The notes under the pieces were generated by a model. That model made no database searches. It was not told the origin of the DNA and was given only the letters and a program-made list of their open reading frames with translations. From positions 124,001 through 188,000 of the forward strand of contig JBEWZL010000235.1 in assembly GCA_045837725.1 (NCBI GenBank): a DNA stretch of 64,000 nucleotides, written 5' to 3'. Below are positions 12,101 to 63,817 of this stretch, piece after piece (position 1 is the stretch's first letter; every line of letters begins with the position of its first letter). The position numbers and the translations under genes are program-made. The DNA comes from Vermamoeba vermiformis (lineage: Eukaryota).

Positions 12101-14004
12101 TCGGTGAGGTGTAAATGACACGTGTCATGTGCTTGAGACCCAAGGCAATGGCGTACTCAGCTACGACTGTTTTACCAGCCGAAGTGTGTGCTGCCACGAA
12201 CACGGACTCTCCTTTCTCGAGGTGATACACGGCCTCTTTCTGGAAGTCATCGAGCTCGAAAGGATACTGGATACATGTCAGAATAAATGTTGCTGTTCCA
12301 GATATCACGCACCTCCAGGGCCAATTCAGGTCTCATTTGTTCAAACTCTTCATTGATGTTTTCCATTCTGTTCATTACAGCCCATTCGACGCCGCGCGAA
12401 GTCTTCTTCGAGTCTGAGTTCTCGAGGGCATTTGACAGCCACCGTGTCTCGTCTTCGAGCAGCTCTGAAATTGACTTGGGTTTCGCTAGAAAAGTTCGTC
12501 GTTAATTAATAGACATTCGAATAGGTAGACATTTAAGTTTGCATACGTTGCTCTTTTTGGGCAGGTGATTCTTCTTTCTGCTCAGCGACTTCCTCGGCTG
12601 ATTGTGCTGGCTCTTCAAGCTCATCAACTTTCTCTTCTTGCAGCTTTTTCATGATTTGCTCCATTTGCTCTTTACGGCTCTGAAGCTGGGTTAACAAAAT
12701 TCTGTGGTTAAGATCGGCTGCCATATACCTGTAAATCCTGTTCTCGTTTATTCTTTTCCACTTGATAGAAGTGATCGTCTTGTAATTCACCAAACGAAGG
12801 CAACAAGTCCAGTCTATTCGAGCTCACTGTATAACGTTAGAACATCAATTATACAAGGTTCTAATGCACTTACGATTATCAGGAGCACTCAAAGCCTCAT
12901 CAGGTACTTCGCCGACAACGCTGGGCTCTTCGTTGGTCGTGTAGTCAAATCCGAATGAGAAGCCAGGAGGTTGTTTGTACAGCGCTGTATAAGTAGTTAG
13001 AATAGGACTGTTGTATCGTTAAGACAACGACTCACATTGAGTGTCGAGATCAGTTGATTCTTTCATATTAACTCCCTTCTTGGACCTAGTAGCCACGGAC
13101 ATTTCAGCCTCCTCGAGACCACCTGTAGACACGTGTCAATTCAAACTCAGCCTCTTTTTGCTTAATATTCATACCAGGCATAAATGGAGAGTTCTTAGAC
13201 GAGCCTCGAACGAAGTCTTGCATTGAACCAGGTTCGCGTAGCAATGACGTTGAGGACGAAGGATCATTGTCCGCATTTTCAGTGTCGAGCTGTGAATGTC
13301 AGTACGTGCCATAACTATGAAGATATTGAATACCTCTTGCACGCCACTAGGCTCGCCAGTAACGTAATCTAATGTCAATTCGATGCTCTTGAATGGCTTT
13401 GAAATATCCAAGTGAAATAAATCGAATAATTCAGTCTCAGGCTCCCAAACACGAGCTGATCTATCCAACTGCTCCTCCAGTGCCGCAAAATCTTTCGTTG
13501 GATTAATGTATTGCTTTTCTAGCTCTGCTTTTGCATCGAAGGGCTCTTGAATGTGAAACGGCAGCTTGACATCACGTTAGAAGGACAAAGTAGAAACGAT
13601 GATGGCTTTTAAATCGCGAATATTGCCAGTTCTTAAGTATACAGGGACTTACCGTTGAGAGCAGTATTTCTGGATGCTTTTGTAAGGCTGCATGTTTACC
13701 GTCTTTAAAATCAATAAATTCAAATTCTCCATATTGTCCAACTTCTAAAAGGTGGAATGGATGTGCCTCTTTCAGGGGTCCTTTCAGTGCTGAAGAAAAT
13801 AATTTATTTATTTTATTTTAATTTTGAAATATTGTGGATCAATCGCCTTCACTCGATGCCATTATCTTATGCAATTATTATTTTGTTATTTGATAAATAT
13901 TTGGCCATAAATTTTGTAGACTTACGATCTGGTTTGATCGTCTCTGGCTCCTTCTCTAATTTGTCTAAATTAGCGAAAAACTCGTCTAACTCCTTGCCGT
14001 CCAT
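9157..14004 (-). CDS. SKI2: Ski2 DExH-box RNA helicase (cytoplasmic exosome cofactor)
   Basis: [61 protein letters not shown]; ends [13 protein letters not shown]. Confidence 0.93.
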
Positions 14005-14150
14005 ATTGTTTCTCTATGGCGGTGCTATTTGAAATGGTGGAACTGCGCTAAATTTTTGGCAGCTCTTCGTGTCACCGAACAAACCGGCTTGGGTAATTAA
14101 ATAATTTATTAGGTTGGATATGACTCTACAAATGCATAAATAAGATACGT

Positions 14151-24540: not shown

Positions 24541-27301
24541 TTACCACTCGTGTATGGCCACACGCGCGATTGTAATGTAGCGCACGTAAGTCGTGACAGG
24601 TGACATGCCGTCTTCATCGGCCAGACCTCGCGCTGATTGATCGCCAATGACTTTGACGTACAAGGCTCGCAATGTCGATGCTCGATGTCCTTCAACCTGA
24701 AATAACATAATTATGTTAAAGGCTCGAAGTCGTAGGCGCTGGTCTTAATACTTACAGTCATCGAACAATGCAGCGGTGGTTTTTGCCACGGTTGTTTTGA
24801 CTGCACGTTCTTGCGCACGGAGACATTCAACTTGCAACTCGATTCACCTCGCATTTTGCCAATACTAAACAATATTAGCATCTGTTTGTCCATCAGACGG
24901 ATTACTTACCTCCAGTTGAGCAGATCTGCTCCTTCAACTTGCGCTGCTTTTCCACCTTCCGCTTTGAGCTCTTCAATTGTAACATTCTCGGGCAGCGGTA
25001 CTAAACAAAATCAGTTTAGCTTCACTATTAATACTAAGTCCGCTTACTGTCCAGGTGCACATCACGCGCTGTCATACTCGCGGCTACAGTGCACGTGATT
25101 TTGATTTTCAGTGCTAGTGTTGCTTGCTTTTCAAATGTTCTCACACGAATTTTGAACGGCAGTGTTGCTTGAGGACTGCGATACCTGGCACAACAGTGAG
25201 CATTGACATGTGCACAATACTTTAACAATAGCACCCACCTCATTAACTGGAAAAGTGTCTTGTCAGGCGGTGTGAAACATATCAGTCGTTCTTTTTGAAA
25301 CAGATTGATGTTGACACTGTTGTGAAATGTTACATCCGCGAGCTCAGCCAGTGTCCTGCTAATACTTAAGTCAGTACTCCTCCTATTCATAGCTCACGAT
25401 TGCTAGAGTCCTTACCCCTCATCATCGTGCTTGACATTTGAGTCGTTGTAACCAAACACGCAGATCGGCATGCCACTGATAAAACTGCGCATCTCCACCA
25501 CACCGTTCACGTAAAAACAGTCACGTGATTTGATCTGCACTGTCTTCGGCTCACCTGAGTTCTTCCGCGCACTCTTCTTGTGCTTCGTTCTTTTGTCTTC
25601 ATTGGAAATCGAGTCCGTGCCACTCGATGCGGCATCATTCCCCGAATTCACCATTGACGCGGAGAGTGTGTTGGTCGTGTTCACTGTGCCAGGGACTGCT
25701 GCGGCCCCTAACGGATCAGTCACGTGATTGGTGTTGTTCTCGTTCTGACCGCTCGCTTGCAATGTCATGCTGTTGCTGAAAGTGGTCTCGACTTCAGGCA
25801 CGACTGAACTGTCTTCGAGGCTGGTTGGTCCCTCTGATTGGATCACATCAATCACGTCGATAAATATCTCATTTTTCTTGTAATTTGGCAGATCTGTGTC
25901 AATCGACTTCTTTTTGTTGAAAAATGAGCCTGATTTTTTGAGCGGGGCTGGCACTGGCGTTGATGGCGTTGAGCTGACTGGCTTCCTATTTTGTGCGAGC
26001 CATAAATAGATTGCCACATTCTTCATGCGCGCACTGTCAATTGTTTCTTTCCAGACCCACTTGTCCAAGAAGTGCACGATGTAGCTGCATGACACGTGTC
26101 AATATGAGCCAATATTAGCAACAAAAGCGCTTACCAGTGCCGCGGACCATAGCTGCGAATCACAACTTGCTTCCAAATCTCACCAATGTCTGTGTAGTCA
26201 CGTCAGTTAAGTTGAATACAGCAGATCTGGGCACGAGCTTACCAGTCAGTTTTTTAAATTGTCTGCAGACCATTGCCGTGTGCGCGAGATCACTGACACT
26301 CAAGAAGGAGAGCACGACGTACAACACTTCGTTGGGCAGACGGGCAAGCAATTCTACGCCCTCAGCAGGAGGCGCAAACATCTCCGACGCTGAGCCCTTG
26401 CTGCTCGACTTGGTCTTGGTGCGTGACCCCTTAGGCGTGGAGGCAGGGCTCGAAGAGGCTCTTTTGAGGCCATTCCACCGCGGCAATTTGAGCGATGAGA
26501 ACGAGCCGCGCTGAAGAAGTGCGGGTGTGAGGAGTGTTGACACGGTATTATTGGACTTACCTTCTTGAGCACGAGGGGAGGTTGATTGTTGAGCTGCAGT
26601 TCTGAAGTACTAATAAGGCTATATTAGAACGCGTGTTATAGAGTCAAGTGAGACGAGTGCGGACTTACCCGGTCATGCAGAGGGCAGTGGGCTCTTTGAA
26701 CCAGAGCGGAGGCAGCAGTGGTCTGACGGGTCCCTGCAGCTTAATCTGATCACTGCTCGCACTCTGCGCGCTATTGTCGCCCTCGTCTTCGCTGTCATGC
26801 GCGTTGTTGTTGTTATTGGGCTGATCTCCGTTTTCATTAACGATGTGCGAGCTGTGAATTGACACTTCGGTGAGTATTGCGGTCACATGCATCTGATAAC
26901 TCCCTTATTGTCAGGCAATAATGTACTTACTTTCTCAGGTCTAGAGCTATCGGGGCTGTTATAAATAAATTCATTATTAATTTTTACAGATCAAGAAAGA
27001 ATATCAAGTCACAAAATTGAACAGTTTGTCCGCTTCCGAAAAATAAATAATTAAAAAAATGGATTCATTTATTTGATGTTAAATTGACTCTTATTGCTCG
27101 ACAGCGGGTCAATTTAAAATTTTTTTCAGATCTAAGAAGCTTCACGTGGTACTTTTATCAACTCGGTCATATTATTTATAATAGGTAAAACAACTTACGG
27201 TATAAATTAGTAACACTTGTCTCATTCAACCCAAATTCTTCCGATTCTTCACTGCCATAGATGTGGCCGTGAATGTCGTGTTCTGAAGAACTGTCCTCCA
27301 T
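24541..27301 (-). CDS. F-box + adaptin mu-homology-domain protein (5' exon structure uncertain)
   Basis: F-box LLARLPNEVLYVVLSFLSVSDLAHTAMVCRQF. Mu C-terminal motifs YKKNEIFIDVI, GVVEMRSFISGMP, DVTFHNSV, FTPPD...LMRY, YVRYIT. Confidence 0.78.
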
Positions 27302-29955: not shown

Positions 29956-32880
<2,925 letters not shown>

Positions 32881-37757: not shown

Positions 37758-39331
37758 ATGCTTAAATATAAATATGTGCCTCAGAGGGGGCTCGAGAATC
37801 TCAGCAAATATCACTACAGTGGCGTAGACAAATCCATTCTCGCGAAATACATTCTGCAGCCATTTTGGACTCGCGCAGTAAATTTATTGCCCACATGGAT
37901 GGCGTAAGTATAATGTGCTTCATATGATGCTCTTGATCATGTTATCGAGTGTTTTTTCTGCTGTAACGCCTTAATTTAATATTTATATCAAGATTACAAA
38001 TATAATTACTATCAATACAAATCAGTACTGTATTGTTATATGTTAATATCAAAAATGATTCACTCGATTTTAAATTGATTGGCAATATTTAGACCGAATC
38101 TGGTGACCTTACTCGGCTTCTTTGGAGTAATTATCGCTTACCTCGTACTAGTCATATATTACTCGCCTGATTTATATCAACCTGCTCCTGGTTGGGCCTA
38201 TCTGCTCGCTGCTGCTTCAATTTTCTTTTACCAAACAATGGATGCGCTCGACGGCAAGCAGGCTCGTCGTACTGGTATGTGGACTCAAAGATCATATAAG
38301 AGACAATGCTAACAACCACTAGGCACCTCATCTCCGCTCGGTGAACTCTTTGACCACGGATGCGATGCTTTGAACACTACAGTACGTGTGACTCACCCGC
38401 CCTATTGTCGTTATATATGCCTCTAATTCCTCGAAATTTCAGCTCGCCACACTGACAGCTGGAGTGCCTCTGCGCACAGGACCAGGCTGGCTGTCATACG
38501 CCTCGTTGCTCAGCTTGTTAGTGCCGTTCTACATGACGCAGTGGGAGGAGTACTACAGCGGCAGTCTCTATTTGGGACCTATTAACGTCACTGAGGGCCA
38601 GGTCATGTCGATGATCATTCACATCCTCGCCTACATCTACGGCCCAGACTTCTTCTTGACCGAGTTCAAGCTCTTCGGCTACACGCTGCAGTACAATCAA
38701 GTCGTGCTCGCTGTCATCGTGTTGACAGGTGTCACCACCACACTCAACAGGTACGTCCTGACCTCGCTGTGACACGTGTCAAACTGCGTCACTAACCACT
38801 CGCAGCGTGTTCTCAGTGCTCAAGATGATGAAGCGAGGCAAAGTCATGCTGCTGCTGTACAGTGCCGTGCGCAATGCCGTGCCCCTCATCTCGCTGATGA
38901 CACTTGCCGTGGTCTGGCCGCTCTACTCGCCACTCAACTTGCCGTATGAACACCCGCAACTGCTCTTCCTCACTGTGGGTCTGTTGCTCGCCAATCTCGT
39001 CGGTCGCATTGTGGTGGCACGTGTGTGTCAGTTGAATGTCGATGTGTTCTACTACATCATGGTGCCATTCGCTGTCGTCACTGCCCACTCTGTCTTCTTC
39101 AAGGGGTACGTGCAGACTCGTGCTTGACACGTGTCATTCATCGATGAACTAACCGCCATTTGCAGCTCGTTGTTCAACGAGTACTACTTCCTCGTTGGTT
39201 ACTGCGCATTCACATTCGTCGCGTACATGCACTTCGCACTGAACATCATCGACGAGATGTGCACGCACCTCAAGATCCGCTGCTTGCACATTCCTTATCC
39301 GAATCAAGCGACTAAAGCACGCAAAGACTAA
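37758..39331 (+). CDS. CEPT1: Choline/ethanolamine phosphotransferase
   Basis: YHYSGVDKSIL, PTWMAPNLVTL, CDP-alcohol motif [34 protein letters not shown]. Confidence 0.92.
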
Positions 39332-39394: not shown

Positions 39395-42031
39395 TTAATT
39401 CACAATTTCTGTTTTTCGCCTGCGCACTTTGAACTCAGGCTCCTCTTCCGCGTCACTGGCATATTCAAACGAGTCATCGCTGCTCGCAGAGTCACTGTTC
39501 ACTCGCTTGGCTTTGCCTTTGCGTTGTGGCTTGTCAGGCTCAGCTTTGATGGGCACTCGTTGCCGCACCACGACGTGGACCTCGTGCTTCACTTTGGCAG
39601 ACACTTGCTCGGGCGAGGACTTGACTTTGACTGGCACACTCTTCGGCACTTCCAATCGGCGCGGTATCTCGACTTTGCGACGTTTGTTTACGACCCATTG
39701 ATTGGCATCGAGCAGGTGTTGAATGTCATTCAGTGTGACACGTGACTTGTGGCCGCCACACAGATAGAGCTGATTGTCTTCAATCTTGAAGCTGAGATCT
39801 TGCAACATGTTGCTGAACTCGTCGTCTGCTTCATCGCGCAAATAGGCCTCGAACAGTGCATCGAACTGTTTGTTGTGTTGCAGCACGGCACTGAGCTGCG
39901 TTTGAGCCTCGCACAACAGTGTTTCACGAATGCTTCGTTTGCTGCGAATGAGAATGCCTTTTTTGGTCAGTTCCATCACGCGTTCTGCTTCACGAATGCC
40001 GCTCTCATAAGCACCAGCCACTAGTCACAACATTAATACGAGCACCTGTGCATATATATTCACTCCGCTTACCAGTGGCAGGGTGCTCTCGATTGGTGTG
40101 TTCACCAGCGAAGAAGATCAAGTCCTCGTGCGGCTCAGCGAGCACATCGTAGTCCTCGCCCGAGGCATCGACACTCACATAGGTGTACGAGCCGAAGATC
40201 CAGGGCTTGGTGGACCACCTATTCATGTGACACGTGTCAATCACTGAACTCTATCGTTGCATAGCACGTGACATTACCTAGTCAGCTTGTAGCCGGTGAT
40301 CTCAGAGACCGGGCCGTAGATCTTCGACAAGTGCGCGCAGAGTGAGAGCACTGCTGCCTCATCCGTGAGCTTCTCAGTCTCTTGTGCGGCACGACCAGCG
40401 ATGAATGCCATGAGCACCGGCACCTTCTTCATCTTGTAGAGATTGACGACAATGTAGAACAGGCCCTGCGAGGGTGACACGAGCATAATGTAGTCCTTGT
40501 CAATGTCCTTGGTCCAGAACACGGATTTGAACGAGATGAACATCTTGTTGAACACGCCAAAGCCGAGTCGTTTGATCGATTTGACTTTGCGCTCCGTCAA
40601 CGGCGGGTCAAAAGTGATCAAGCTAAGAGCGGTGAGTGTCGGACATAGTATTATATAAAGTAGACAGTAGAATAGCAGTACGTACTTGCGCTTGAGCACA
40701 CCGAGTGAAGACGTCACAATGACAGCGTCAAATGCAGGTTTGAGTGCCTGTGCCACACGCCGCTGTTCGTGCTCGGAGACCTCCGCGGTGAATTCATACG
40801 ACACGCGCACGCAATCAGTGTCCTCGTCTTCAATGCGCTCGAGCTTGGTGACTGCCACGTTGTAGTGCACGTGCGACACTGGTCGGAACTTGAAGAACTG
40901 ATTGTAGCCGTCAATCAGCATCACGTGATCACCGCCGAATTCGTGACTAAATATAGCAATGAGTACTATTGACCAAATAAGGTAATATGTCTCTTGACTC
41001 ACGGGTCATCTTGGTCCCAGTGGTGCAGTGACAGGTTGCTGACAGGGGCCGAGCACGGTGCTTCAATGTTGGCCACGTGCCACATGAACACTTGACGTCG
41101 GAGATCCTCCGAGATTGTGGTCTTATTGTTCCGCGCGCCATTCGAATTCGAGCGCGGTCTGTCCTGCACCACCGCACTGTAGAGCTGTCGCAGCACGGAC
41201 GAGGACTTGTGCGTCGAGTCCAAGTAGTACTTGATGCCCTGCTCGAGGGACCAGTTGGTGGTGTCGGGAATTTCCGAGAATGTTTTGAGCTTGACTTTCT
41301 TGTCGTCACTCGGCACCTCGCTGCTGGCACTCACCTCGCGCTCTTCAGCACGCACTTGACGCTTGAAGTGTCCACCACGCCGTCGCTTGCCGTGCTCACC
41401 ACTCGCGCGCTGCACGCCATTGCGCTCACGGATCCAATCGAGCATGTCCAGCATCTGATTGAACTCCTTGGTCACGCTCTTGTCCAGCACTGGATCCACT
41501 GCTGTCCCGTGCTCGTCGTACATGGAGTAGCCGTCAGGGTCCGGACTGTACGTCATGGACTCGTCGAACATGTCTGCCACGGGATTGCCGAGGGTGCCGT
41601 GGATGAAACTCGCGCCCTCGTCGATCACCGTGCCACAGAACGGCGTGGAGCGCACACGACCCCCTGTGTGACACGTGTCAATCACCGTCACGTGGCGTGT
41701 GGATGCAGTACGTACCATAACGTTCTTGCGCATCGACTACCACCACAGAATAGCCCTCTTCTTCGAGCGTGGAGGCAGCAGCACATCCACTCGCACCGTA
41801 GCCGATCACGAGCACGCGAGGTTTGACGTCTTTCTTGCACCGCTCATCGATTTGTTGCTTTACCTTCATGAGCTTGGCAATATTGTCTGTAGTATAATGA
41901 GTGATCATTAGCACCAGTCGCGCTAGATCGCGTTAACGAATGTCCTTCGTACCGAGCCCGTCAGCGGCGAGGACTTGCGATGATATTAGCCATCGCCCAT
42001 TATGAGATGACAATAGCTCTTTGTTGTCCAT
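39395..42031 (-). CDS. Flavin amine oxidase, LSD1/KDM1-like catalytic domain
   Basis: VLVIGYGASG...GGRVRS FAD fold, GASFIHG, LSLHHWDQDDPHEFGGDH, LGFGVFNK, GSYTY, FAGEHTNREHPATVAGAYESGIREA. Confidence 0.85.
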
Positions 42032-42415
42032 TTAACTAATGATTCAAATTGAAATTAGTCCAGGAAATTCATGAATGAAATTGTCAAATAATTAAAAAAT
42101 GCGATAATGTAATAACTTAAAATAGCGATTTTAATTGTTAATAAATTGCGAGAATATTATCCTAAAAATATATTAAGAATTTCCGGAAAGAACATCACAA
42201 GATCCAACGATCGCGAACTTCCAACTGACTTACGTATTTCTTAGGCGTTCTCCGACTGAGAATTGAATACTAAGAAATATATATTGAATTGCAGAGTGGC
42301 ATGCGGAGTGTTATTGTAAACGGCGCGATGATAAAATACGGCGACACGACAATTGCGATAGTTATTCGTGAGAAATACACAAACAACAGCCCTGTGGTCA
42401 ATATTATAACGCAAG

Positions 42416-43207: not shown

Positions 43208-43305
43208 ACAGCTCAATCAGTGCACATCTTGTATATAGTCCAATCCAATTGTCGCATAACAGCTGTTTATATGAATCCAGTACGCGAAATAAAGCTACAT
43301 TAGTC

Positions 43306-44000: not shown

Positions 44001-44100
44001 CCTCAGTTGTTGTGTCTCGTTTGTGTACTGGCACAAAATGCGCGTTTCTTGCGCCAATCAAAATTCGCAGAAAATCAAACAGATCACCATGCCTGCTTAG

Positions 44101-47100: not shown

Positions 47101-48653
47101 CAGATGTTAGAGGTGTGTAACGCAGTCTATTGTCCTGCCAGCACTGACACTCCAGCAGCCCCTCAGCATGTTGCCCATCGGCAAGTTTGGTTGCGAGAAG
47201 TTGATCTCGGTGGGTGATCCCATGCAACTGCCCCCCACTCTGACCTCCAATCAAATCACCACCAGCCTTGAGGACCACACGCTCGGCAAGACACTCTTCA
47301 CCCGTCTCGCGCACCTCGGTGTCACTCCGATCATGTTGCGCACTCAGTACCGCGTACGTCTTACAATGACACGTGTCAATTTGACACTTTACCTAACAAC
47401 TCCGCAGCTGCACCCTCAGTTGAGCAAGATCTCCAACAAACTCTTCTACAGCAATCAGTTGCGCGATGGTGTCACGAGTGCGGACCGTGCCCCGCTGGCC
47501 ACTGATGTCCCGACACTGCTGTTCTGCAACACGGCGAACGGTGGCAATGTAAGTGACACGTGTGTACTGTACTGCTCACCCGTCTGTTTAGGAAGTCATG
47601 CTGGGCGACAGCTATTTCAATCAGTACGAAGCACAGCTCGTGGTGGAGCTCATTCTCATGCTGCTCGAGCGCGGCTGTCGTGGCGAAGAGATCGGTGTGA
47701 TTGCATTGTACAAGCGGCAGGAGCAGAAGATCAGCGAGCTCTTGTTGCAGCGCAGTGGCCTTGTGACACCTGTCAATCAGCAGCCCTCACAAGACACCGA
47801 AGACGAGGCTGTCTCGCGTGAGAGTGCTCTGAAACAAGTGCAAATATCGACTGTGGATGCATTTCAGGGAGCGGAGAAAGGTAATGTCCAAATTAGGCAA
47901 GTCCGTTGACTGACCGTTGACTGCAGAGGTGATCATTGTCTCCACGGTCAGAACGAGCAAGCGAGGGTTCACTGACAGCCCGAACAGACTCAACGTGGCT
48001 TTGACACGCGCGCGCAGGTCAGTGTTTGACAGGTGTCACGTGACGCAACTAACTCCGAACAGACACTTACTGATTGTGGGTCGAGCCACCACCCTCACTG
48101 GCAGTCACTTGTGGCACGAAGTAATTGCGCAAGCACGTGGTAGGTCTATTTTTAGCATGTAATTGCATGTAAAAATTAATTGCCTAATATGGTAGCAACA
48201 CCACGCGGCTTTCAGCAAGCGCAGCAGTTGCTCGCGCACAAGAACTTCATGGCCCCGAACATCGCTGCAGTGCCTGACGAGCCAGTGAGTGACACGTGTC
48301 AAAACGAGAGCGAGAATGACACGCGTCAAACTGAAGCCGACGTTGACGAGGACAAAGACTACGAGGACATACGGAGTGAACTGCGCGGATCACGTGACTC
48401 GCCTGAACCTCTACCAGGGCCTGAACACGAAGGCTCGGAAGATATTTCCTTATTAGGCAATAACACTAACCTCGAAGAAGAGCTGCCGAATGACGAAGAG
48501 GTGCTTGATGACGGTCAAATCGTGTTCGCGCTCGATGACGAGGCCGCAGTGTCGCCCAGTCCTAGTCGCAGTGTCGCGCAGTCGAGTGAGTTCACGACAG
48601 ATGCAGCACTCGAAGAGTTCGACGACCACGATGAGTTTGATTTGGGCTTCTGA
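44101..48653 (+). CDS. ZGRF1: ZGRF1-like protein (DUF2439 + Upf1-like SF1 helicase)
   Basis: FQVLYTKHKIQTRKTWQDGF (DUF2439), LVHGVYGSGKS, SAATNTAVD, ILDESSQ, VGDPMQLPP, LRTQYRLHP, STVDAFQGAEK, NRLNVALTRAR. Confidence 0.88.
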
Positions 48654-48782
48654 GCTCACTCTACATAACAAGTGTTGTAAATATTGCGCGTTGTGTTCGC
48701 AAGGCAGTTGTATATCAGTGTTCAATTTATTCGATTTACAGTGGCTGGATGTAGATTAACTGGGTGTATATTGTTGAATGTC

Positions 48783-49032
48783 TTATTCGTCAGCCTTTTG
48801 GCGATCCAATCTTTCCTTCACATCAATCCACAATTTCTATATTAAACGAGCGTTAACGCACTTCAGACAAGGCAGATCGAGTTCGACTTACGCCCTTGTT
48901 GAGTTTGTGCCAAAGAGAGTCCATGAAGCTGCTGCTGGTACCTTCAATAACAACGGCAGTGGCAATAATAGCGCCAAACCAGAGAGAGTTTCTCTTGAAG
49001 AATGCGTTGTAAGCAGTGGCCTTGAAATCCAT
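48783..49032 (-). CDS. QCR9: Cytochrome bc1 complex subunit 9 (not in ORF track)
   Basis: Two exons give MDFKATAYNAFFKRNSLWFGAIIATAVVIEGTSSSFMDSLWHKLNKG/KLWIDVKERL..., matching the family NxGKLW motif. ATG directly follows an acceptor (intron 49262-49033). Confidence 0.88.
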
Positions 49033-49267
49033 CTAAAAAAATACAATATTTTAATATCCGAGTGTAGTTATTGTCCATTGCAGTATAATTATCTACAAGA
49101 TCTTATTTTGTAGTTAATTTAATTATTGCCGGCTAATATGGTGAATTATTATTATTATTTGTATTAATTATCAAATCCGAGCTGTTGTTGTCAGTGCATT
49201 ATTATTCGAATCATTATCTGCAGTTAATATGACGCGTACTAATAACAACTAATATAACGCACCTGTT

Positions 49268-49518
49268 TATGTTGATGAGTGCAGTTACGAATAAGAAATA
49301 ACCAACTTTCACGAACAAACTGCACCTCACCGCCGCTGTCAATCATGCCGCTAGAGATGTATAGAGGACACAAACATAAAGAACTCTTCAAATGTGTGGT
49401 GCATCTGCATAGCCGCGAATAGGGCTTGGGGTGTAATGTAGTTGCGGATTGGCGAGATCTACTTATTGTTCGTTCTCGCCGACTGTCTTGCGCTATCACG
49501 GCATACCCCCACGACTAT
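49268..49518 (-). ncRNA. Candidate structured RNA (three consecutive hairpins) or structured QCR9 5' leader
   Basis: Minus-strand stems AUAGUCGUG/CGCGGCUAU, GGCGAGA/UCUCGCC, AGAUG/CAUCU and GGUGAG(G)UGCAGUU/AACUGCACUCAUC; G-U pairs close only on the minus strand. Confidence 0.4.
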
Positions 49519-49633
49519 AATAAACAGAATAGCGCAGTCTCTGAGCGTGCCTCGAATAGTTCCGCGCGCCAAATAAATCAGTGCCGAGTCGCTGATTGTT
49601 AATCAAAATTTCAAGTACAGAAGAGCCCTACAA

Positions 49634-52069: not shown

Positions 52070-52272
52070 TTGACACGGTGACAGGTGCCACCAGATCGTA
52101 AATAGCAGCAAATACTGGTGTCAACTGCCGCGCTGTGTGTTTTGTAATTGTTTTTTTAACCTTTTAAACTTCGAAATAAAATCAATTGTATTCTTGTATA
52201 TGACGGTATTATTACATCAAAACTGTACATGTTGTTGTTGTTAGTGCCGAGGACGAGGAGCAGATCTGTTCG

Positions 52273-55200
52273 CTACTCATCACCCTCCTCGACCTCTTCA
52301 TCGTCAGCAATGCCGAGCTTGGCTTTGAGATCGTTCTTCTCCATTTCAGCGCGGGCCAGACACACCAACAGCTCTTCTTGCTCGGCTGCCAGGGCCTCGT
52401 ACTGCTCTTTGCTCTCCGTGAGCTCTGCCGTCAATTCCTTCACGCGCTTGCTCAACACTTCCAAGTTGGAGTCACTCAGCGCGCTGTTGCTCTTCTCGCG
52501 CTCCAATTGACTCACGCGCGACTGCAGCACTTTGTTCTCCTCACGCACGCGCTTCAACTCTTCGTTCTCTTGGCGCAGTCGTCGCAGTTCGAGGAATTGA
52601 TCGTCATTCGCCCCTGTTGTCTTTTGCTATAAAAGGCAAGTCAGTTCCGAACACTCAACTGACACATGTCATTCACGCACCTCCAAGCTTTGCACACGTG
52701 CTTTGAGCTCCACAATCTCGCGCTCACGACGCTCCAACTCTTCTTTGAGCTTGCTGTCATTTGTCTGCATTTGGAACAAATAAGGTTAATATTGCCAAAT
52801 AAGGCAATCCGACATACGCCGAGTTGCGGAGATTTGATCTTGTACGCGTTGAGTTCTTGTCCTAATTGGGCCACGCGCTTCTCCGACTCTTCGTATCTCC
52901 TGCGCAGATCAACGAGCTGTTTGTCCTGCGCTAATAATAGCTCTTTGTACTGATCGATCTTCATTTGGTGCTGTTCTTGGCTCACACTCGCAGGGCCCGT
53001 GCTGGCACTCGCGCTCACTTGATTTGGTCGCAAGCGGCGCACAATTTTGTCTGTTCAGTGAACCGCATGTCAGAGAGGTGTGACAGGTGACACGTGTCAA
53101 ACTACGTACCGTACGTGCGATTGAACAGGAGCGTGAACTCAAAGTCGTACCAGTGCTGCACCGTGTCGTCCTCGTGCACCGCGTGGTGTTGTAGGGCACG
53201 CTGTTGTGCGCGCGTGAATTCATCGCTGCGGCGCACTTGATCCAAGCGATCGAGATAGCGATCGATCGTGATGCTGTTGGTGACGAGATCTTGGATCAGA
53301 CTGCGCTCAGCGGTCACGTGATCGAGCGGCAGACACAGACCACACACCAGGGCTGACAGACCAGCCACGTGCATGTTGGTCGAGGGCTGATTGATCACGT
53401 CCACCAACTGCCTTATTAGTCAGTCGTGGGAACACTGCGCTAAAAATAGAACTACGCACCGTAGAGATGTTCTCGCGTCCGTTCATGAACAGCGTCACTG
53501 CGGGGTCACAATCGTCCAACCACGTGGCTATCATGCGCAACAGGCCGAGTTGCACCTAAAAATAGAATGAGTCGCGTAACCTTCGCGCCATTCACTGAAC
53601 GTTACCGGCACAGCAGCACGTGTCTTGAAGGCCTTGATGAGCAGTTTGACAGTTTTTGACAGCAAATTGTCCGCTGCACGGTGTTCGCTGTCCTCGAGCG
53701 GAATTTTCAACAAGAGTTCTTTGACCAGGGCATTGTTCCGCAAAATAGCTGCAAAGATGACAGCAGAGAACCAGATTTTCAGTCCTTGCTCCTCGTGCGC
53801 GGCATCACCATCGAGCACGTGGATCAACATGCGTCCACAGGCCTCTTCATCGACCTCACTTGCCTTATCGGGCAATGGTGTCACGGTGGTGGCCAGTGCG
53901 CGCTGAGCCTCGCTGTTCTCGGTGAGATAGGCTGACAGCACACTCAGCGCGGCGTGTCGTTCAGCGAGCAGCGGGGCGTGGAAGATGATCAGCAGCAGCT
54001 TGATCACTGCGGGCTGCGCTTGTTTGTTCAGCACCTCGCTGTCGTAGCGCGTGGTCTCGAACACGTGACTGTTGTCCACGTGACCGCGCAACAGCAGTGC
54101 CAGGGCCCGCATGGCCATCAGTCGCACGCGCGGTGAATTGAGTCCGCCGAGTGCCAGCTTCATCACGTGATCGAGTATCTTGTTCTCGTTGAACGCGGTC
54201 TGAAAGCTGTACGTGTTGGTGCTGGTGCCGGACAGCAGTGCTATTAATAGCCGCAGTGCGTGGTAGAGGATCTCAGCCTTGTTCTCGGTCAGCAGCCACA
54301 TGTCACCTTTCTCGACCTCGTACAGCGGGGGCAAGCGTTCAATGCAGCCCATCTCGCGGAACAGATTCTGCAGTGACACGTGTCAAACAGCGGACAGCAC
54401 GAATGGGAATAAAGCACGCACCTGATTGGAGGGATTGTCGCTCAAGAGTGCCGTGAGCAGCACAATGCAGTCCACGACGACCACGCCGCCCTGATTCATC
54501 TGCTCCTCGCCCATAATGTCCAACAAGCGATCAAAGCCCCCCTCAAAAGCAACAATCTTCTGGATCTCTTGATTGCTGCGCGTCAGTTCGGTCAGCAGCA
54601 ACAGACCCTCTAGTGCCCGTGGTTAGTAACGACTAGTAACTGACACCATGCCACTCACCATTGCGTATGAGGTCTGAATTGGTGCGCAAGAGGTCCGTCA
54701 GGTGCGCAATGCCCATCGGTGTGTGCAGCACTGCCTGTTGCAGCTGCGACGCGTTGTTGGCGAGCAGAATGGCCAGCAGCTTGGCCGTCAAGTAGCGCAC
54801 ATTCTTGTCCGACTCCTCGAGCAGCGACAGCACGATGGGGATGTTCTGCGGGTCCTAGTGCGTGCATTATAACGTTATAGAGGGCGTGCATAGGAGTGGT
54901 GTAGCGGTGATGACGTCAGGTCTGCACCACTAATTTTAACTGCGCTACTTACCTCCACGAACTTCTCGACATTCTTGTACGCCACTGACTCAGGGGGTAC
55001 TTTGCGTTGTTCTTTGTCCTACGAATTTTTCGAATTATTTTTCAATTTTAATGCAGATGGTTGTGTTGATGTTTGCAATCACTTACCACAGTCATTATAT
55101 TCACGAAAATCTGTAATAATCCCTTAACCGAGTCATTGTCCTGTCGTTCCGTCTTGAGCGCATTAATCAACACGGAAATAGCAGATCCAATGTCCTGTAC

Positions 55201-55402
55201 ACGAGTCAGATCTGATTTGAGAGGAGCGATAGTAACAACACACCTTGCTAGTGTCCGCGTTATCAGATATGTTCTTCAAATCAGCAATAGCTTTCTTCTT
55301 GTCTTCGCGCGAGGCTGCATCTTGAATGCGCTGCACGAGTGTGGGGACAGAGACCTGCTGCTGTGTAGAGGCCTTGTCCATGAGGCCCTTCAACCAACTC
55401 AT
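52273..55402 (-). CDS. USO1: Uso1/p115 Golgi vesicle tether
   Basis: PMGIAHLTDLL...IRNEGLLLLTELT, IQKIVAFEGGFDRLLDI, VVDCIVLL...NPSNQNLFRE armadillo head; coiled coil ending EQEELLVCLA and an acidic tail. Confidence 0.92.
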
Positions 55403-55577
55403 GGCTTAGCTGTGTGATAGTGGTGAGGGCTGTGTTCGTGTCAGTGGACTATCAAACAGAAATGACTTGCGCGTCAGATGTGCACCACACGTTAGAGGAA
55501 GCGAACGCGGTCATAAACAGCACTTGATATATAACACTGGCATAGCAATTGTGATGTTAAGTGTACTGCAGTAACAG

Positions 55578-58393
55578 ATGGACTCACGAAGCGAGGTGAG
55601 GACTGAACGGCGTTTATTATTCAGCTGACATCGATTTAAAATTAAATTAATTCATGCTAAAATTCCAGTAAATATTATTAGTCATTTCTGCGCGTATTAA
55701 TGGCCTTCGAACTTCACTTCAGAGCACGAGCAACACCAATGCACCCTACGACAGCACTGGGCATAATAACAACAATAATGACCTTGTTGACAATGCAGTT
55801 CAGACCCACGCGCAGGATAAGCACGCAGCGAGTGAGTCACATCCCAATGTCGCGAGGTGAGTAGATCTGCCGCAACTGACTAGCGTGCTCACCTCTCTTG
55901 CAGCATACTCGAGGGCTGGTTGAATGAAGATGATGACGAGGAGTACGTGCCGAGTGACGATGAGGTGAGTGGCATTGCCTAATTAGGAAAGTGTGACTAA
56001 AATAGGCCCAGAAAAAAGAAGATGAGCCCGAAGAGGCAGTGACCCCCGCGGACGATGACTATTTAGGCATTGCACAGCGCACGCGAGCACGCCATTCACT
56101 GAACGACGTGGCACTGCAACAGCTCGAATCCGCACTGGTGCCGCCAGTACACGAGAGCGAGCTGCACGACGAGGCGTATGATTGGGAGGACCTGCTGCCG
56201 GACATCGAGGACGACACACCGCACAACACCACTGCTGACAGCGAGCACGTGACTGATGCGGACGAGTACAGTAAATTCTTGCAATTACTGCGCAACAATG
56301 CCGATCTGGAAGAAAATCTCGAGGGAGATCGCGAGTACAATTTTGAAGAGGACCTCAAGCGCCATCCCATCAACGAGCGCGAGGACCTGGTAGTGCCACA
56401 TGCCACCGTCATACCGCGTAAGTCTGCTCGTTGCCAGGTGACGATGATTGACAGGCGAGATAGAGCGCGAGATACACGATCTGATCCACCCCGAAGAAGA
56501 TCCGCTGCAGTACCGCAAGAAGAAGAAAGAGCGCGTGTTTGCTGCTGCATCTGTGCAACGCTTGAAGCCCATTCTTCCGCTGAACGACCAGGGCGTGCGG
56601 TTCATGAATCAGAGTCGACTGAGCTCGCCGTTCCTGTTCAGTGCCGCACAGCTGCAACAGCTCAAAGCGCAGATTGTGGAGCACCATCAGCTGCTGATTC
56701 AAGTCTTCTTGCTCACCAAGCGACTCACGGGACACGAGCACGTGACTGGCACGGCCTGGGACCTCTTGGTACGTACGGGTTGTTCCTAATATGGCAATAA
56801 CCTCCCCGCGCAGCAAGAGATGCACCAGTACCGCACGGTGATGATGTCGTACTGGACACTGCGCGACAAGACTGTCACTATGCCACCACACCTCGCCACA
56901 CCTCCGAGTGGCACTGCGCCACCACTGCTCACGGGAAATTCCGTGTTTGACGTGGGTATTCCGCTGAACGGTACGTCCCCGTTGTCTGCTCGCGGCACGT
57001 GATCTGAAATTTCGCAGAAATCATCACAGCCCTGCAAGCAGTGGTGTCACTGCCACGTCAGCTGACAGCGGAAGAATTCGATCAGTTCGTGCACCTCTTG
57101 CGGCCCTATTTTAATCCGCACTTGAAGATCGAACTCGATCAGACCGGTGAGTCTATTTTTAGCATCATTTGCACCACTTACATGTCACGTGCAGCCTCCA
57201 GTACGAGTCGGCTCAAATTCACCCCTGCTGAGGATCGGTACGTTGTCAGTTGCCTAATTAGGCAATGATGTCTAATCACGTGCGCAGATTGCTGCTGATT
57301 GGTCTAGAACGGTTCGGCACGCGCGATTGGGAAAGTATCCACAAGTATATTCTGCCCACCAAGGATGTGAAGCAGTTGGTGAATCGGTGAGTAGTTTCAG
57401 TGAAGGGCAACAGATCACGTGACTGACGACCAATCAGCTTCAAGAACAAGACCGCCAAGAGTGCCAAAGACAATCCCATCAAACAGTTCTACACCGCGCA
57501 GATGACACCGCTCTCCGAACACGAACTCGCCCTGCTCGAACAGGTAGCTGCACATGAACTCTGATCACGTGACTGACACTCGACCAGGGCGTGATGTTGC
57601 ACGGACACGACTTTGACACCATTTCGCGCTGTTTGTTGCCGCACCGTCACAGCCACATCTTGCACAAGTTGTGGAAACAGCTGCACAAGCACAAGTACGT
57701 ACTGCCTTATTTGGGCATGTCATTGCCTGATTTGGACATGTCCTGACCAGTGACAGGAGTGACACGCCACACGCGCACAAGCACAAGAGACCGCGCTTGA
57801 ACGAGAACTTTCTGACCAATGAGCTGCTCGATGACGAGCCTGAAGAGTCACGTGACTTTGTGACGATCACTGTCAATGGTGTCAGCACGCCCATCAATCG
57901 CACCACGGTCAAGCTGGCACACCTCGAGCAGGTGCTGGAGGAGCGGGAGCGCAGTGTGCCCCACGAGTCGCAGAACAGCGTGATTGGCCGCAAGCGACCG
58001 CGCTCCCCCTCGCTGGAGCTGCAGTACTCGCCGCCTCAGGACGCAGAGGAGCACGGACACGATGAGGAGTTTGAGATTGAAGAGCTGTTGAGCGACGATG
58101 ATGAGGAGTTTGAAGTGGAGGAGCTGGAGGACTCTGAAGACGCGGCGCAGCCACAGCACACAGTGAGCTTGGCGGACAATATGACGCTGATTGATGGCCA
58201 GATGATTGTGTGGACCAAGGACGAGGATCGCTGGATATTGAGTGCAGCCAGGGACGCAGGGCCCAAGACTGAGACGTGGAACTCTTTGGCGCAGTCGCAC
58301 ATGCCGCAACGCACGAGCAAACAGATTGCAGAACGCTACGCACAGCTCATGGAACTGCTGAGACAGAGAATTGGCGGGCAGAATAGCAAATAG
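55578..58393 (+). CDS. GON4L: GON4L/DUO3-like SANT/Myb transcriptional regulator
   Basis: IAQRTRARHSL, EYSKFL, QLKAQIVEHHQLLIQ, FTPAEDRLLLIGLERFG...LPTK...NPIK, C-terminal WTKDEDRWIL SANT. Confidence 0.75.
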
Positions 58394-62407: not shown

Positions 62408-62657
62408 AGTTAATGTACTATCACGTGTGGTCCTCTCGATCCGTTTTGAAATTGAAATGTAAGCTGAAAAGTCAAATTATTTTTTATCAATTTTATTTGC
62501 TATGTACATGACAGCGGCAGTAGCTCTCGTCCGCTAAACTATCTACATCTTCAATATGAATCAAACGGACCTAGATGTCAGTGCCTGTTTTTGGTAGTAT
62601 GATGCAAGGGCAGCTGAATCACGTGATTCAATCTTTGCACTCATTCATTCGGAGATA

Positions 62658-63817
62658 TCAATCGAGATCACCCACACCACCAGTCACGTGCTCGTGCTCA
62701 TCCAAGTGATACTCCTCGCGCGCCTCGTCCCCAAACAGCTCGTGCTCGTCCTCCTCCTCATCGCGCGGTATCTTCACCTCCTCGTCCTCGCCGTACTGCA
62801 TCGCGTTGTCAATCTGTGACAGCAGTGCCACCACCGTGTCTTTGTCTTGCACATTCAGTGGCTGAAAGCCCACCATGTTGTACTGCTCCACCTGTCACGC
62901 AACGGTCAGTGCGATGCTCTGTTTGACACGTGTCACACTTACAATCTCGGCAATGGCCTGATTGAGTCGTGTCAACTTGACAGGCGTGTCGTGTGTCAAC
63001 TGCCGTGCCAGCATGCTCGGATCAGGGTCGCAGAATCTGTGCAGGGGTCAGTGCATGGAGCACGAGGAGGGCGCAGTACTCACTGTTCGAGATAGTCCTC
63101 GTTGAGCAGCAGCTTCTTGTCGACGAGATCGAGCTTGGACAGCACATTGAGGTGCGGCAGTTCCAAGTGCAGCATCGCAGAGAGACACAGCAGCAGCCCA
63201 CTGATGAACTTGGCGCTGTCGCTGATGAACTGGCTGTCGATCAGATACACCGCGCACATCTTGTAGCCCCAGCGACGCAGTTCATTGACTAATTTGGGCA
63301 TCACACCCACGTGACTGTAGAGCTCCAACTGGCCCGGACAGTCGATGAGCAGATAGTCGTCCTCGTACTCGCCCAGCTGGTCGCGCAGCCAGTCCATGTT
63401 CTCGCTCAGGTACTCCATGCAGTACACGAGGCCACCATTGGGTCCGTAGTGCAGCTCTTCCATCACATCGTCGATGCTGATCAGCTCGCGGATGTCAATG
63501 CTCGCTGGGTACTTGAACTGATCTGCCGCTGGATCGAGATTGACAACGTGCACGGTGCGCTTAATATTCTCGCAGTGTTGACGCATCACCTCGCAGTACG
63601 TGGACTGGTAAAAGAGAATATTAGTCGTGTCGGTGGAAGCAGATCTGCTTGGATCGTGATCGAAGCATGGAGAAATTATCCCTCTTTAGAATAAATGGTA
63701 CCAAAATTTTTAATATGATGAAAATGAATTGATATTAATTAAAAATAACAGCACTGAAAATGTTCTTACTTTTCCTGATCCAGCTGGACCCATGATGATT
63801 TGTGCGTATTTGCCCAT
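62658..63817 (-). CDS. GPN3: GPN-loop GTPase 3
   Basis: MGKYAQIIMGPAGSGK/STYC, VNLDPAA, YGPNGGL, DCPGQLELY, NVLSKLD, IDNAMQYGED. Confidence 0.93.

Follow-up and report, generated by a model that had tools for sequence, protein, structure and literature searches.

Results

The palindromic 12-mer TGACACGTGTCA occurs 13 times in the window, by which we mean the whole 64-kb stretch of Vermamoeba vermiformis DNA analysed here, and the coordinates given for all of these exact copies in a preliminary description were recovered without exception. Eleven copies lie in introns of about 50-60 nt, two in exons and none elsewhere. On the plus strand, the intronic copies belong to a CDP-alcohol phosphotransferase (CEPT1-like) gene, in introns 38751..38805 (motif 38770-38781) and 39106..39165 (motif 39125-39136), each at an offset of 20 nt from the donor, and to an Upf1-type (ZGRF1-like) helicase gene, in intron 47354..47407 (motif 47367-47378, offset 14; gene model). 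The remaining host genes are read from the minus strand. They are an F-box gene, with an intron taken from the exon/intron model only (26085..26134; motif 26090-26101, 5 nt from the 3’ splice site; the model gives 26085-26163, with 26134 an alternative donor); MCM6, with introns 30582..30632 (motif 30602-30613, offset 20; gene model and Pfam) and 31740..31787 (motif 31767-31778, offset 10; gene model); an amine-oxidase gene, with introns 40219..40277 (GTAATG donor; motif 40228-40239, 9 nt from the 3’ splice site) and 41664..41715 (motif 41669-41680, 5 nt from the 3’ splice site); USO1, with introns 53051..53109 (motif 53088-53099, offset 11; gene model) and 54368..54421 (motif 54374-54385, 6 nt from the 3’ splice site); and a GPN-loop GTPase gene, with intron 62892..62942 (motif 62924-62935, offset 8; gene model and Pfam). 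In the gene-model reading, the predicted start codons precede the copies by about 240 to about 2,900 nt, and there is no preference for the 5’ end.

Introns that carry the motif are spliced. Explicit RNA joints in contigs of runs X5 and X6 (38747>38803 and 39104>39165) excise those bearing the copies at 38770 and 39125, and RNA pieces that end at 41662, 54367 and 40020/40276 adjoin the introns of the copies at 41669, 54374 and 40228. In the last case 144 nt of transcript separate the pieces that stop at 40020 and 40276, and the boundaries of this intron, which the gene model missed, are accurate to about 2 nt. The remaining six motif introns come from the gene model alone. RNA joints or adjoining piece ends thus support five of the 11 introns named in the preliminary description. 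Near the first USO1 intron, reads of X23 have loose ends at 53110 that run into a diverged copy of the next exon.

The description had also called two copies coding. The copy at 12116..12127 (minus strand) certainly is, as it encodes part of HMTRVI in the helicase motif region of a Ski2/Mtr4-like gene (Pfam matches on neighbouring exons), while that at 48290..48301 (plus strand) is probably coding and lies in the open frame 48189-48653, which encodes an acidic tail. A near-copy, TGACACGCGTCA, follows the latter 15 nt downstream, at 48317. Among variants altered in the centre, TGACAGGTGTCA is found both in an exon (38723..38734, plus strand), 17 nt upstream of the 38751 donor and within the RNA piece 38443-38747, and at 48027..48038 (plus strand) in an intron-like 45-nt segment outside the gene model, with a GTCAGT donor followed by CTAAC and CAG. 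The centre variant TGACACCTGTCA lies at 47764..47775 (plus strand) in helicase coding sequence (LVTPVNQ), and TGACACATGTCA at 52660..52671 (minus strand) in USO1 intron 52627-52680. Variants altered in the arms are TGACACGTGTCT, on the minus strand at 13127..13138, located at the 3’ end of a 52-nt stretch that resembles an intron and belongs to a gene outside the model, and TGACACGTGACA at 7950..7961 (plus strand), in intron 7937-7989 of an ankyrin/SAM/kinase gene. All near-copies reported earlier were found and fall where they had been placed, with 13127 and 48027 intron-like, 52660 in a modelled intron and 47764 coding.

The number of copies far exceeds what composition predicts. Dinucleotide shuffles of the window give an expectation of 0.01, Markov models of order 1-5 give 0.010-0.31 when trained on the window including the copies and 0.009-0.056 with the copies masked, and the upper value, 0.31, comes from the 5th-order model. 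The refutation check proposed with the motif, that a 5th-order model might explain its frequency, was run and fails, because no order from 1 to 5 expects more than 0.31 copies. In introns, TGACACGTGTCA is the most frequent word among all 8- to 12-mers and outnumbers every single branch-site word. CpG depletion was not found (observed/expected 0.97-1.18).

The copies are also unevenly distributed. With compartments defined by a home-made exon/intron model trained on the window, on which the intron counts depend, introns comprise 95 segments (6,470 nt), exons 35,938 nt and the remainder 21,592 nt. This model recovered 10 of 15 RNA-supported joints, and the five that it missed (all at 41.9-42.9 kb) were entered by hand. 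Introns make up 10% of the window, and the probability that 11 of 13 copies would be intronic by chance is 7e-10. About one intron in nine carries the motif (11/95 intron segments), at a density of 1.7 per kb that is 49 times the density elsewhere in the window. No copy falls in the 21.6 kb outside introns and exons, against 37 expected at intron density, and exons contain two exact copies against 0.03 expected. The proposal of an intragenic signal concentrated in introns is therefore borne out, as is the absence from promoter gaps for exact copies; a near-copy at 35916 precedes a predicted start codon by about 20 nt. The suggestion that the motif sits in introns because it costs no coding capacity there cannot be the whole story, since the other 21.6 kb hold none of the 37 copies expected there. 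Further classical dimer-site palindromes are also enriched in introns, namely the CArG-like CC(A/T)6GG (6 copies versus 0.38 in shuffles) and CTA(A/T)4TAG (4 versus 0.26).

The motif recurs in other eukaryotes, with 8 additional, unseeded copies in 81.9 kb of other eukaryotic contigs. The comparison set contained 17 non-redundant contigs of other eukaryotes; the window-trained gene finder performed poorly on metagenome contigs, and a local intron-likeness score was used there. At the nucleotide level, none of the 33 metagenome loci showed similarity to the window. Among named homologues of the PP2A-A exon, the best reach no more than 55% identity and belong to several supergroups. Four loci (L006, L010, L026 and L030) were set aside as likely chance hits, having bacterial-type genes, long unbroken frames or a G+C content of 62-63%; they were left out of the variant and spacer counts, together with the unclassified L020 (57% G+C) and L025 (one copy, in a TCP-1 chaperonin gene).

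The variants and the spacing of the half-sites define which part of the word is constrained. Thirteen of the 21 one-mismatch variants in the window and the other contigs alter only the central CG (p 4e-6). Inverted TGACA..TGTCA pairs with a spacer of 2 number 51, of which 17 are in the window and 34 in the 17 other contigs, whereas spacers of 0, 1 and 3-7 together yield none in the window and one in the other contigs. At spacer 2, the 51 inverted pairs compare with 8 direct repeats, everted and direct arrangements being rare. The centres of the 51 sites are CG in 38, CC/GG in 9 and CA/TG in 4, with none in the other 7 classes, so that the CACGTG core is present in 38 and broken in 13. The constrained part is TGACA-N2-TGTCA, with the arms under more constraint than the centre, and both the variant spectrum and the spacer-2 geometry back the earlier reading of the motif as TGACA-NN-TGTCA. 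Additional half-sites, for example TTGACAC and CATGTCA(C), adjoin many copies, an arrangement that resembles homotypic site clusters.

Orthologues of the helicase gene allowed one intron, 47354-47407, to be followed across taxa at the level of read-through peptides. In four relatives, helicase open reading frames that share 61-82% identity with the query exit the exon at a common end (..MLRTQYR) and continue into the intron, with a GT-type codon next after the shared exon end in all four. Two variable codons follow, and three of the frames then continue with VTRVK, LTPVK and CDMCQ, where the window reads MTRVN. These peptides fit the motif with centres CG, CC and TG at an offset of 14-15, while the neighbouring residues differ; the chance probability of each such signature is 3e-7 to 2e-5 per position. 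The motif thus appears to have been kept in the orthologous intron while its surroundings diverged, again in the form of the TGACA-NN-TGTCA arms, with the core CACGTG broken in two of the three inferred copies. In the fourth relative the tail is VTFTS in all 8 cluster members, and the motif is not kept. A similar search of C-terminal frames for read-through of MCM6 intron 30582-30632 returned a strain protein, 99% identical, that keeps an identical read-through, and two relatives at 72-73% identity that begin after the intron.

Discussion

We propose, tentatively and with slightly less than even confidence, that the 12-mer is a selectively maintained, dyad-symmetric binding site on double-stranded DNA for a dimeric protein, confined to introns and used as a branch site in some of them. 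Dyad symmetry, fixed spacing and the lack of an RNA hairpin favour a reader at the DNA level; a reader of single-stranded RNA is disfavoured, because it would not require inverted halves. The putative factor would be sequence-specific and would recognize two inverted TGACA(C) half-sites with a spacer of exactly 2 bp. A TALE homeodomain protein would be a candidate, the geometry being that of TALE dimer sites, and a bZIP or bHLH protein on the ACGT/CACGTG core would be the alternative. As the sites are intronic, with very few in exons and none in the non-coding DNA that separates or flanks coding regions, such a factor probably acts on the transcribed gene body, through elongation, transcription-coupled chromatin or an intron-borne enhancer, and probably not at promoters. 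Because the sense word TTGACAC is also an acceptable branch-site word, the motif could take the branch-site position as well, and it probably serves as the branch site in about one third of its introns. We infer the binding of a protein, its family, the effect of binding and this use in splicing.

Several observations sit uneasily with a DNA-binding factor. One of the promoter type would be expected to have sites in intergenic DNA, where there are none, and restriction to introns, to the exclusion of untranslated and intergenic DNA, is a prediction of a role in RNA or splicing. The asymmetry of flanking bases on the sense strand is not predicted by a pure DNA dyad: of 34 intron copies read in the sense orientation, 26 have T at -1 but only 11 have A at +1, and discordant pairs number 20 versus 5 (p 0.004). 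The table of these 34 copies includes L025 and L030, and omitting both would not change the direction of the bias. Lastly, the 13 exact copies in the window compare with 8 that are one mismatch away, which is sharper than most collections of transcription-factor sites. A rule of exactly one T-flanked half per copy, which holds for 12 of the 13 copies in the window, broke down in the other contigs, where T..A flanks are common, and was dropped.

That the word acts in RNA, where the sense strand UUGACAC(GUG) would serve for branching, for auxiliary binding of U2/SF1 or as an intronic splicing enhancer and would be kept in introns because it works only there, is a possibility that we take seriously but consider rather unlikely. 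It would account for confinement to introns as opposed to other non-coding DNA. In 4 of the 11 window introns (copies 26090, 40228, 41669 and 54374) 3-9 nt separate the end of the motif from the 3’ splice site, as is also the case for the near-copy 13127 and for 3 of the 8 unseeded copies elsewhere, which puts the A of TTGAC at branch distance; a yUnAy word about 10-20 nt before the 3’ splice site is thus supplied in these five cases of the window. No CTRAY is present at the usual distance in 54368-54421, 41664-41715 and others; the TTGAC of the motif is the only branch-site-like word at that distance in the former and, judging from the sequence, the likeliest branch site of the latter. Every branch-position copy has T at -1 on the sense strand, in line with the overall flank bias, and the orthologous helicase intron conserves only its donor, motif and branch site. 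However, the other 7 of the 11 window introns have a canonical CTAAC or CTGAC downstream at a normal distance, with the motif 20-37 nt from the 3’ end, so that most copies lie upstream of a separate branch site. About 7 of the 20 discordant flank pairs are branch-position copies, and without them the bias (about 13 versus 5) is not significant; five intron copies have the T-flank on the antisense strand only. Spliceosomal branch sites are not palindromic, and a splicing word leaves the dyad symmetry unexplained, with 51 inverted arrangements against 8 direct ones at spacer 2. Nor does it account for exact and near copies in exons (12116, 38723 and 47764), where the exact ones are in excess of expectation. 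Pairing between RNAs, in which the word folds into a hairpin or two introns of one transcript pair to affect exon skipping, back-splicing or intron stability, is in our view very unlikely. The word is perfectly self-complementary, and MCM6, the CEPT1-like gene, the amine oxidase and USO1 have two exact copies each, but a hand estimate from intron numbers predicts 2-3 such pairs, which four do not clearly exceed, and no defensible regularity was found in same-gene pairing or in the spacing of copies. No shared hairpin was found either: 9 of the 11 motif introns fold no better than shuffles (z > 0), their pairings differ, and Rfam has no match in the window. A hairpin was rejected on these grounds, the lack of a common fold and of stability above shuffles. 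Moreover, the tolerated centres CC and TG break self-complementarity while the arms are kept, and flanks never lengthen the palindrome in the window.

The word might instead be the core or remnant of a mobile element that creates or invades introns (an introner or MITE-like element), or a fixed excision footprint, as the “transposon footprint” of the preliminary description would have it; this we regard as improbable. The word is repeated identically across unrelated genes, palindromes are typical of inverted-repeat elements, and the available part of PMC7789003 describes introners with inverted repeats in Amoebophrya, citing Micromonas and Aureococcus. These introner- or MITE-derived introns resemble the present case in having identical sequence with inverted symmetry in many introns of unrelated genes (PMC7789003, same part). 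Introns also turn over in the clade: the 43-nt intron 47113-47155 of our model is missing from the open reading frames of two relatives, which read unbroken through ..QMLEPLSM... Introners share sequence over the entire intron, though, whereas only 12-14 nt are shared here. Motif-anchored flanks (34 copies, 15 nt per side) are 0.287 identical in the same orientation and 0.278 when flipped, close to the 0.264 given by composition, and their information is limited to positions -1, +1 and +2; the earlier statement that the rest of each intron is not homologous agrees with this, and the footprint is not supported by it. Introners carry their repeats at the ends of the intron, and short direct repeats mark its borders, while here the arms are adjacent, and the word is internal, not terminal, because its offset from the donor ranges from 7 to 42 nt. 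Target-site duplications or border repeats were not evident in introns inspected by eye. Motif introns (48-60 nt) are as long as others, and therefore no insertion of 12-14 nt has occurred. The helicase intron is no recent gain, being present at the same residue in 4/4 relatives, and its position is shared with relatives at about 80% protein identity. The position of the motif is shared too, although the intron flanks have diverged, so this copy must be old, and a neutral 12-mer would not have survived. An origin by chance, or from the base, hexamer or codon composition alone, has next to no probability. CACGTG alone is frequent, with 76 copies in the window, but the Markov and shuffle expectations given above and the recurrence in independent contigs from other eukaryotes refute it.

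The preferred reading, a DNA site for a dimeric factor, has its nearest parallel in the dimer sites of TALE homeodomains (MEIS/PKNOX/TGIF), which likewise have two inverted TGACA halves, a 2-bp spacer and a 12-bp dyad, and in which, as here, the half-site arms matter more than the spacer bases. The HT-SELEX consensus listed for MEIS3 in the accessible portion of PMC5449588 matches letter for letter the CC/GG centre form, which makes up 9 of our 51 sites, and TGIF1 binding to TGACA is, from the portion at hand, the subject of PMC6158717. The preferred centre here is CG, which also makes a CACGTG box, and the sites described here are in introns of housekeeping genes, outside promoters and enhancers, with binding predicted from sequence. 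E-boxes and G-boxes (bHLH and bZIP; CACGTG/ACGT core) resemble the exact copies, which contain CACGTG with symmetric flanks, but in persisting variants, as in those inferred for relatives, it is the core that is broken and the arms that are kept. The other abundant E-box type of the window, (A/G)TCACGTGAC(TG), is not enriched in introns (0.47 per kb, against 0.42 in exons and 0.51 elsewhere), and the two behave as separate signals.

In plants, a motif that acts only downstream of the start site has been reported. Intron-mediated enhancement, in which introns carry expression signals, offers a likeness in its short signals within the transcribed region (PMC11850230, in part); those signals are degenerate, dispersed and best near the 5’ end, while the present motif is an exact dyad and occurs at any position along the gene. 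In the literature, the exact TGACACGTGTCA was found in two Ebola papers only, and the sub-words GACACGTGTC, TGACACGTG and CACGTGTCA gave nothing on introns among the matches listed, many titles being on nucleosome reconstitution. For palindromic motifs enriched in short introns, a search of main texts gave nothing closer than the introners of Amoebophrya, as far as the available part of PMC7789003 describes them.

A bolder version of our proposal, speculative and somewhat doubtful when taken whole, is that the motif represents a lineage-wide class of 12-bp dyads resident in about one in nine introns, under selection at orthologous introns, bound by a dimeric factor on the gene body and open to co-option as a branch site. 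Such a factor might, for example, pause or pace RNA polymerase II at tiny introns, organize gene-body chromatin or mark sites of recombination.

Short introns of microbial eukaryotes are usually held to carry splice signals only. If a DNA-binding dimer reads the motif, these introns would be protected sites of gene-body regulation in a compact genome, and a site geometry of the TALE type would be in use outside promoters; if the spliceosome reads it, the motif would be a new auxiliary splice signal. Either reading is directly testable, as the element is short, exact and abundant and the organism is in culture with RNA data. Should the lineage-wide version hold, the motif and the CArG-like and CTA(W)4TAG palindromes of neighbouring introns would form a second layer of protein-DNA signals within genes, carried mainly by the short introns of a unicellular eukaryote.

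Results

Gene content and intron model

The window is gene-dense and its introns are very short. Pfam matches on exon-sized open reading frames (ORFs) include Spb1, NDC80, MCM6, a Ski2/Mtr4-like helicase, flavin amine oxidase, PP2A subunit A, USO1 and a GPN-loop GTPase, among others. The PP2A subunit A exon has one relative at 93% identity, all others being at most 62% identical, and its best named proteins, from fungi, Amoebozoa and other groups, reach at most 55%. RNA contigs from two public runs, aligned to 38-58 kb of the window, provide GT..AG joints of 45-74 nt and two that extend to 198 and 311 nt, and the usual intron words are GTAAGT, GTACGT or GTGAGT at the donor, CTAAC, CTGAC or CTCAC at the branch site and YAG at the acceptor. 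The donor GTACGTAC, itself an 8-nt palindrome, is frequent, with four in introns (e.g. 40623-40685, 41664-41715, 56769-56813 and 57695-57756). Runs that bear the labels of several different organisms include RNA-type contigs with spliced transcripts 95-100% identical to 38001-58000, and small shares of the words sampled from this stretch are present in root metagenome RNA runs. RNA reads filed for the species named as the source of the window match it at only 95-99%.

Exons and introns were assigned by a home-made dynamic-programming model that combines codon log-odds from Pfam-supported frames with donor, branch and acceptor scores. It recovered 10 of 15 RNA-supported joints, all five misses falling at 41.9-42.9 kb, in two genes that the model lacks; these five, three more joints and the intron 40219-40277 were added by hand. 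The final version assigns 6,470 nt to 95 intron segments and 35,938 nt to exons, and leaves 21,592 nt as other sequence.

The 12-mer is over-represented and concentrated in introns

The 12-mer is a perfect palindrome with arms TGACA-N2-TGTCA and a CG centre (CACGTG core). All 13 exact copies reported in the preliminary description were found again at identical coordinates, and it is the commonest 12-mer of the window. Dinucleotide shuffles predict 0.01 copies, and a fifth-order Markov model trained on the window predicts 0.31 with the 13 copies included and 0.056 with them masked, so that hexamer makeup, which had been raised as a possible explanation, fails to account for them. Under our home-made model of the 64-kb window, 11 exact copies are intronic, two exonic and none lies in other sequence, which bears out the concentration in introns claimed earlier (chance 7e-10). 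Intron density is 1.70 copies per kb, 49 times that of the rest of the window; at this density 37 copies would be expected in the "other" class, which has 0. About 11-12% of introns carry the 12-mer, and its sub-words are the top 7- and 8-mers within introns, above every branch-site word.

Explicit RNA joints excise the introns of copies 38770 and 39125 (copies are named by start coordinate), and RNA contig pieces stop at 41662, 54367 and 40020/40276, beside the introns of copies 41669, 54374 and 40228; the remaining motif introns come from the home-made model only. Both exonic copies had been described as coding. This holds for copy 12116, which encodes part of HMTRVI in a helicase, while copy 48290, within an acidic open frame, is only probably coding; the two exact exon copies compare with 0.03 expected (p 5e-4). 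To the right of 25 kb, 11 of 67 modelled introns contain the exact motif, vs 0 of 28 on the left side (p ~0.03, an estimate). The left part has 42-46% G+C and is A+T-richer than the right part; two near-copies (one or two mismatches), at 7950 and 13127, do lie within 1-25000.

Variants preserve the arms and their spacing

Sites with at most two mismatches number 31 in the window vs 4.1 expected (13 exact, 8 one-off, 10 two-off). The near-copies listed earlier are all among the sequences present, at the locations claimed, and the near-copy TGACAGGTGTCA (reverse complement TGACACCTGTCA) occurs three times. Across the window and 17 non-redundant metagenome loci, inverted TGACA..TGTCA pairs occur 51 times at a 2-nt spacer and once at spacers of 0, 1 and 3-7 nt together, and everted and direct TGACA arrangements are rare. 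The centre of the 51 sites is CG in 38, CC/GG in 9 and CA/TG in 4, with the other seven classes at 0, so that one half is always TGACAC. Among the one-mismatch variants, 13 of 21 alter the central two bases alone (p 4e-6). Together with the fixed spacer, this variant spectrum implies that the arms and their spacing outweigh the CACGTG box.

The geometry is the same as that of TALE-homeodomain dimer sites, and the resemblance proposed in the preliminary description is strengthened by the 51 sites at spacer 2, with arms steadier than the centre. The CC/GG-centred form equals the consensus given for MEIS3 in PMC5449588. An ACGT-core bZIP or bHLH protein is a possible reader of the exact form, but is a poorer fit to the tolerated centre variants.

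Six exact or near copies (47367, 47554, 47764, 48027, 48290 and 48317) are packed into 1 kb near the 3' end of the helicase gene (47354-48328), which looks like a homotypic cluster. The 280 nt preceding a predicted start codon (35947) contain, at 35672-35927, five CACGTG boxes and the near-copy 35916; this region is likely a promoter or 5' leader. The E-box word CACGTGACTG has 11 copies (25518, 25717, 35742, 35899, 54062, 56246, 56739, 57416, 57566, 62681 and 63308), mostly exonic or outside gene models rather than intronic; 6 of the 8 inside modelled genes are on the gene's own strand, and the word codes for (E)HVT in several unrelated proteins.

A subclass of copies lies at a putative branch position

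Four of the window's 11 motif introns (copies 26090, 40228, 41669 and 54374) have the motif ending 3-9 nt upstream of the acceptor, a distance shared by near-copy 13127 and by three of eight unseeded copies elsewhere. In the acceptor-near cases counted, the A of TTGAC falls at about the usual branch-word distance of the organism; intron 54368-54421 has no other yUnAy word at branch distance, and every acceptor-near copy is preceded by a sense-strand T at -1. Among the 34 intron copies compared, 11 of which are the window's and 23 from other loci, 26 show T at -1, while at +1 there are 16 with C and 11 with A. Discordant flanks divide 20 vs 5 (p 0.004), or about 13 vs 5 without the branch-position copies. 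We infer that the sense form is compatible with a branch site and probably serves as one in the acceptor-near introns. Pairing with U2's conserved branch-binding region would presumably also be lengthened by the bases that follow the branch A.

The motif appears to be retained in an orthologous helicase intron

A query frame at 47156-47548, which spans intron 47354-47407 and parts of the helicase exons on both sides, retrieved four ORF-type proteins, 61-82% identical to it in the alignment. All four keep the exon to ..MLRTQYR, after which their reading frames continue across the exon end. Translation of the intron starts with V (GTN), then R or S, compatible with a donor of GTACGT or GTRAGT; two variable codons come next, and three of the four then have VTRVK, LTPVK and CDMCQ at the place of the window's MTRVN. 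By the genetic code, VTRVK fits the exact 12-mer, LTPVK a CC-centre variant and CDMCQ a TG-centre variant one base out of register. These signatures stand at offset 14-15, like the window copy, each has a chance of 3e-7 to 2e-5 per position, and the residues flanking them vary between taxa. An LTT read-through, which in the window matches the CTAAC branch word, is common to the window and one relative. The fourth relative, with VTFTS in 8 of 8 cluster members, has not kept the motif. At the peptide level, and for this one intron, the comparison suggests that the arms are under purifying selection and that the motif is old rather than recent.

The model also places a 43-nt intron of the helicase gene at 47113-47155 (+). 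It is absent from the ORFs P0145 and P0146, proteins of related taxa that are unbroken across the site (..SSQMLEPLSM..), a hint that the clade has gained or lost this intron, or that the model errs here.

The motif occurs in other organisms

Metagenome contigs were scanned with the pattern GTACGT, 1-31 nt, 12-mer, 0-30 nt, CTRAC, which has four matches in the window. The scan gave 33 loci, none with nucleotide resemblance to the window. Since 27 of them, from four samples, are 99.5-100% identical, they represent one organism; its contigs are eukaryotic, with gene fragments for coatomer gamma, COG2, a CLC channel, an RNB nuclease, an ABCD transporter and malic enzyme. Another eukaryotic contig (L031) encodes Kelch and LRR domains, a gene for a TCP-1 chaperonin is present on L025, and L020 is kept unclassified. 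The loci L006, L010, L026 and L030 look bacterial, and four is about the number of chance matches that had been estimated. The 17 non-redundant loci (81.9 kb) contain 25 exact copies, 8 of which were not the seed; 4 of these 8 have a clearly intron-like context (score at least 3) vs 5.8% of random 12-mers (p 7e-4), and the phenomenon is therefore wider than this assembly or species.

Other palindromes in introns

CC(A/T)6GG is found six times in introns vs 0.38 in shuffles, at 40947-41002 and 52765-52817 on the minus strand and at 55965-56011, 56769-56813, 57238-57287 and 57695-57756 on the plus strand, with flanks that often lengthen the dyad (e.g. TTGCCTAATTAGGCAA at 57249-57264); we take these words to resemble MADS-box (SRF/Mcm1-type) sites. 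Further CC(A/T)6GG words at 36285, 47888, 48183 and 48448 possibly lie within unmodelled introns. CTA(A/T)4TAG is found four times in introns (40947, 53440, 53556 and 57153) vs 0.26 in shuffles, and also at 48146. Its CTATTTTTAG form accounts for three of the intron words and occurs once more at 48146, two of the words adjoin the donor on its 3' side, with GCAT after them, and the intron words presumably resemble MEF2-type MADS sites. Besides the motif, there are 17 perfect 10-nt palindromes vs about 7 expected for all 10-nt palindromes.

Discussion

The transposon footprint suggested in the preliminary description does not agree with our data, and an origin from a mobile element is very improbable. 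When the 34 intron copies were oriented by transcription, anchored on the motif and compared over 15 nt on each side, flank identity was 28.7% in the same orientation and 27.8% flipped, near the 26.4% that composition predicts; the remainder of these introns is thus non-homologous, as had been claimed, and only positions -1, +1 and +2 are informative. The motif starts 7-42 nt after the donor, in introns of 48-60 nt that are as long as their neighbours, lack terminal repeats and show no obvious duplication at their borders. In this they differ from the introners of Amoebophrya, Micromonas and Aureococcus, for which PMC7789003 describes inverted repeats at intron ends and direct repeats at borders. 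A palindrome could also act through RNA-RNA pairing, which we consider scarcely credible here: folded as RNA, 9 of the 11 motif introns are no stabler than dinucleotide shuffles, the motif base-pairs differently in each, and Rfam has no match within the window.

We tentatively favor a selected candidate protein-DNA site acting on the gene body, although we would not put this at even odds. A dimeric protein would read the site in double-stranded DNA, a reading suggested by the dyad symmetry and fixed spacer, the tolerance of centre changes, the additional half-sites nearby, the lack of an RNA fold, the occurrence of copies in both flank orientations and the excess in exons as well. That the motif is primarily a splice element acting at the RNA level seems rather unlikely, even though it is wholly absent from non-intronic non-coding DNA, has a sense-strand flank bias and includes a subclass of copies at the branch position. 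The two readings are compatible with each other. A motif within a 50-nt intron is itself subject to splice-signal constraints. The remaining probability falls to something outside the readings considered. CpG depletion was not seen in the window.

In the full-text literature searched, neither the 12-mer nor a comparable intron-wide dyad was found described. The motif is akin to known intragenic and intronic cis-elements and to TALE-type dyad sites, with a real chance that it is further removed from known systems. The other intron palindromes found here support the idea that introns of this genome may carry protein-DNA signals.
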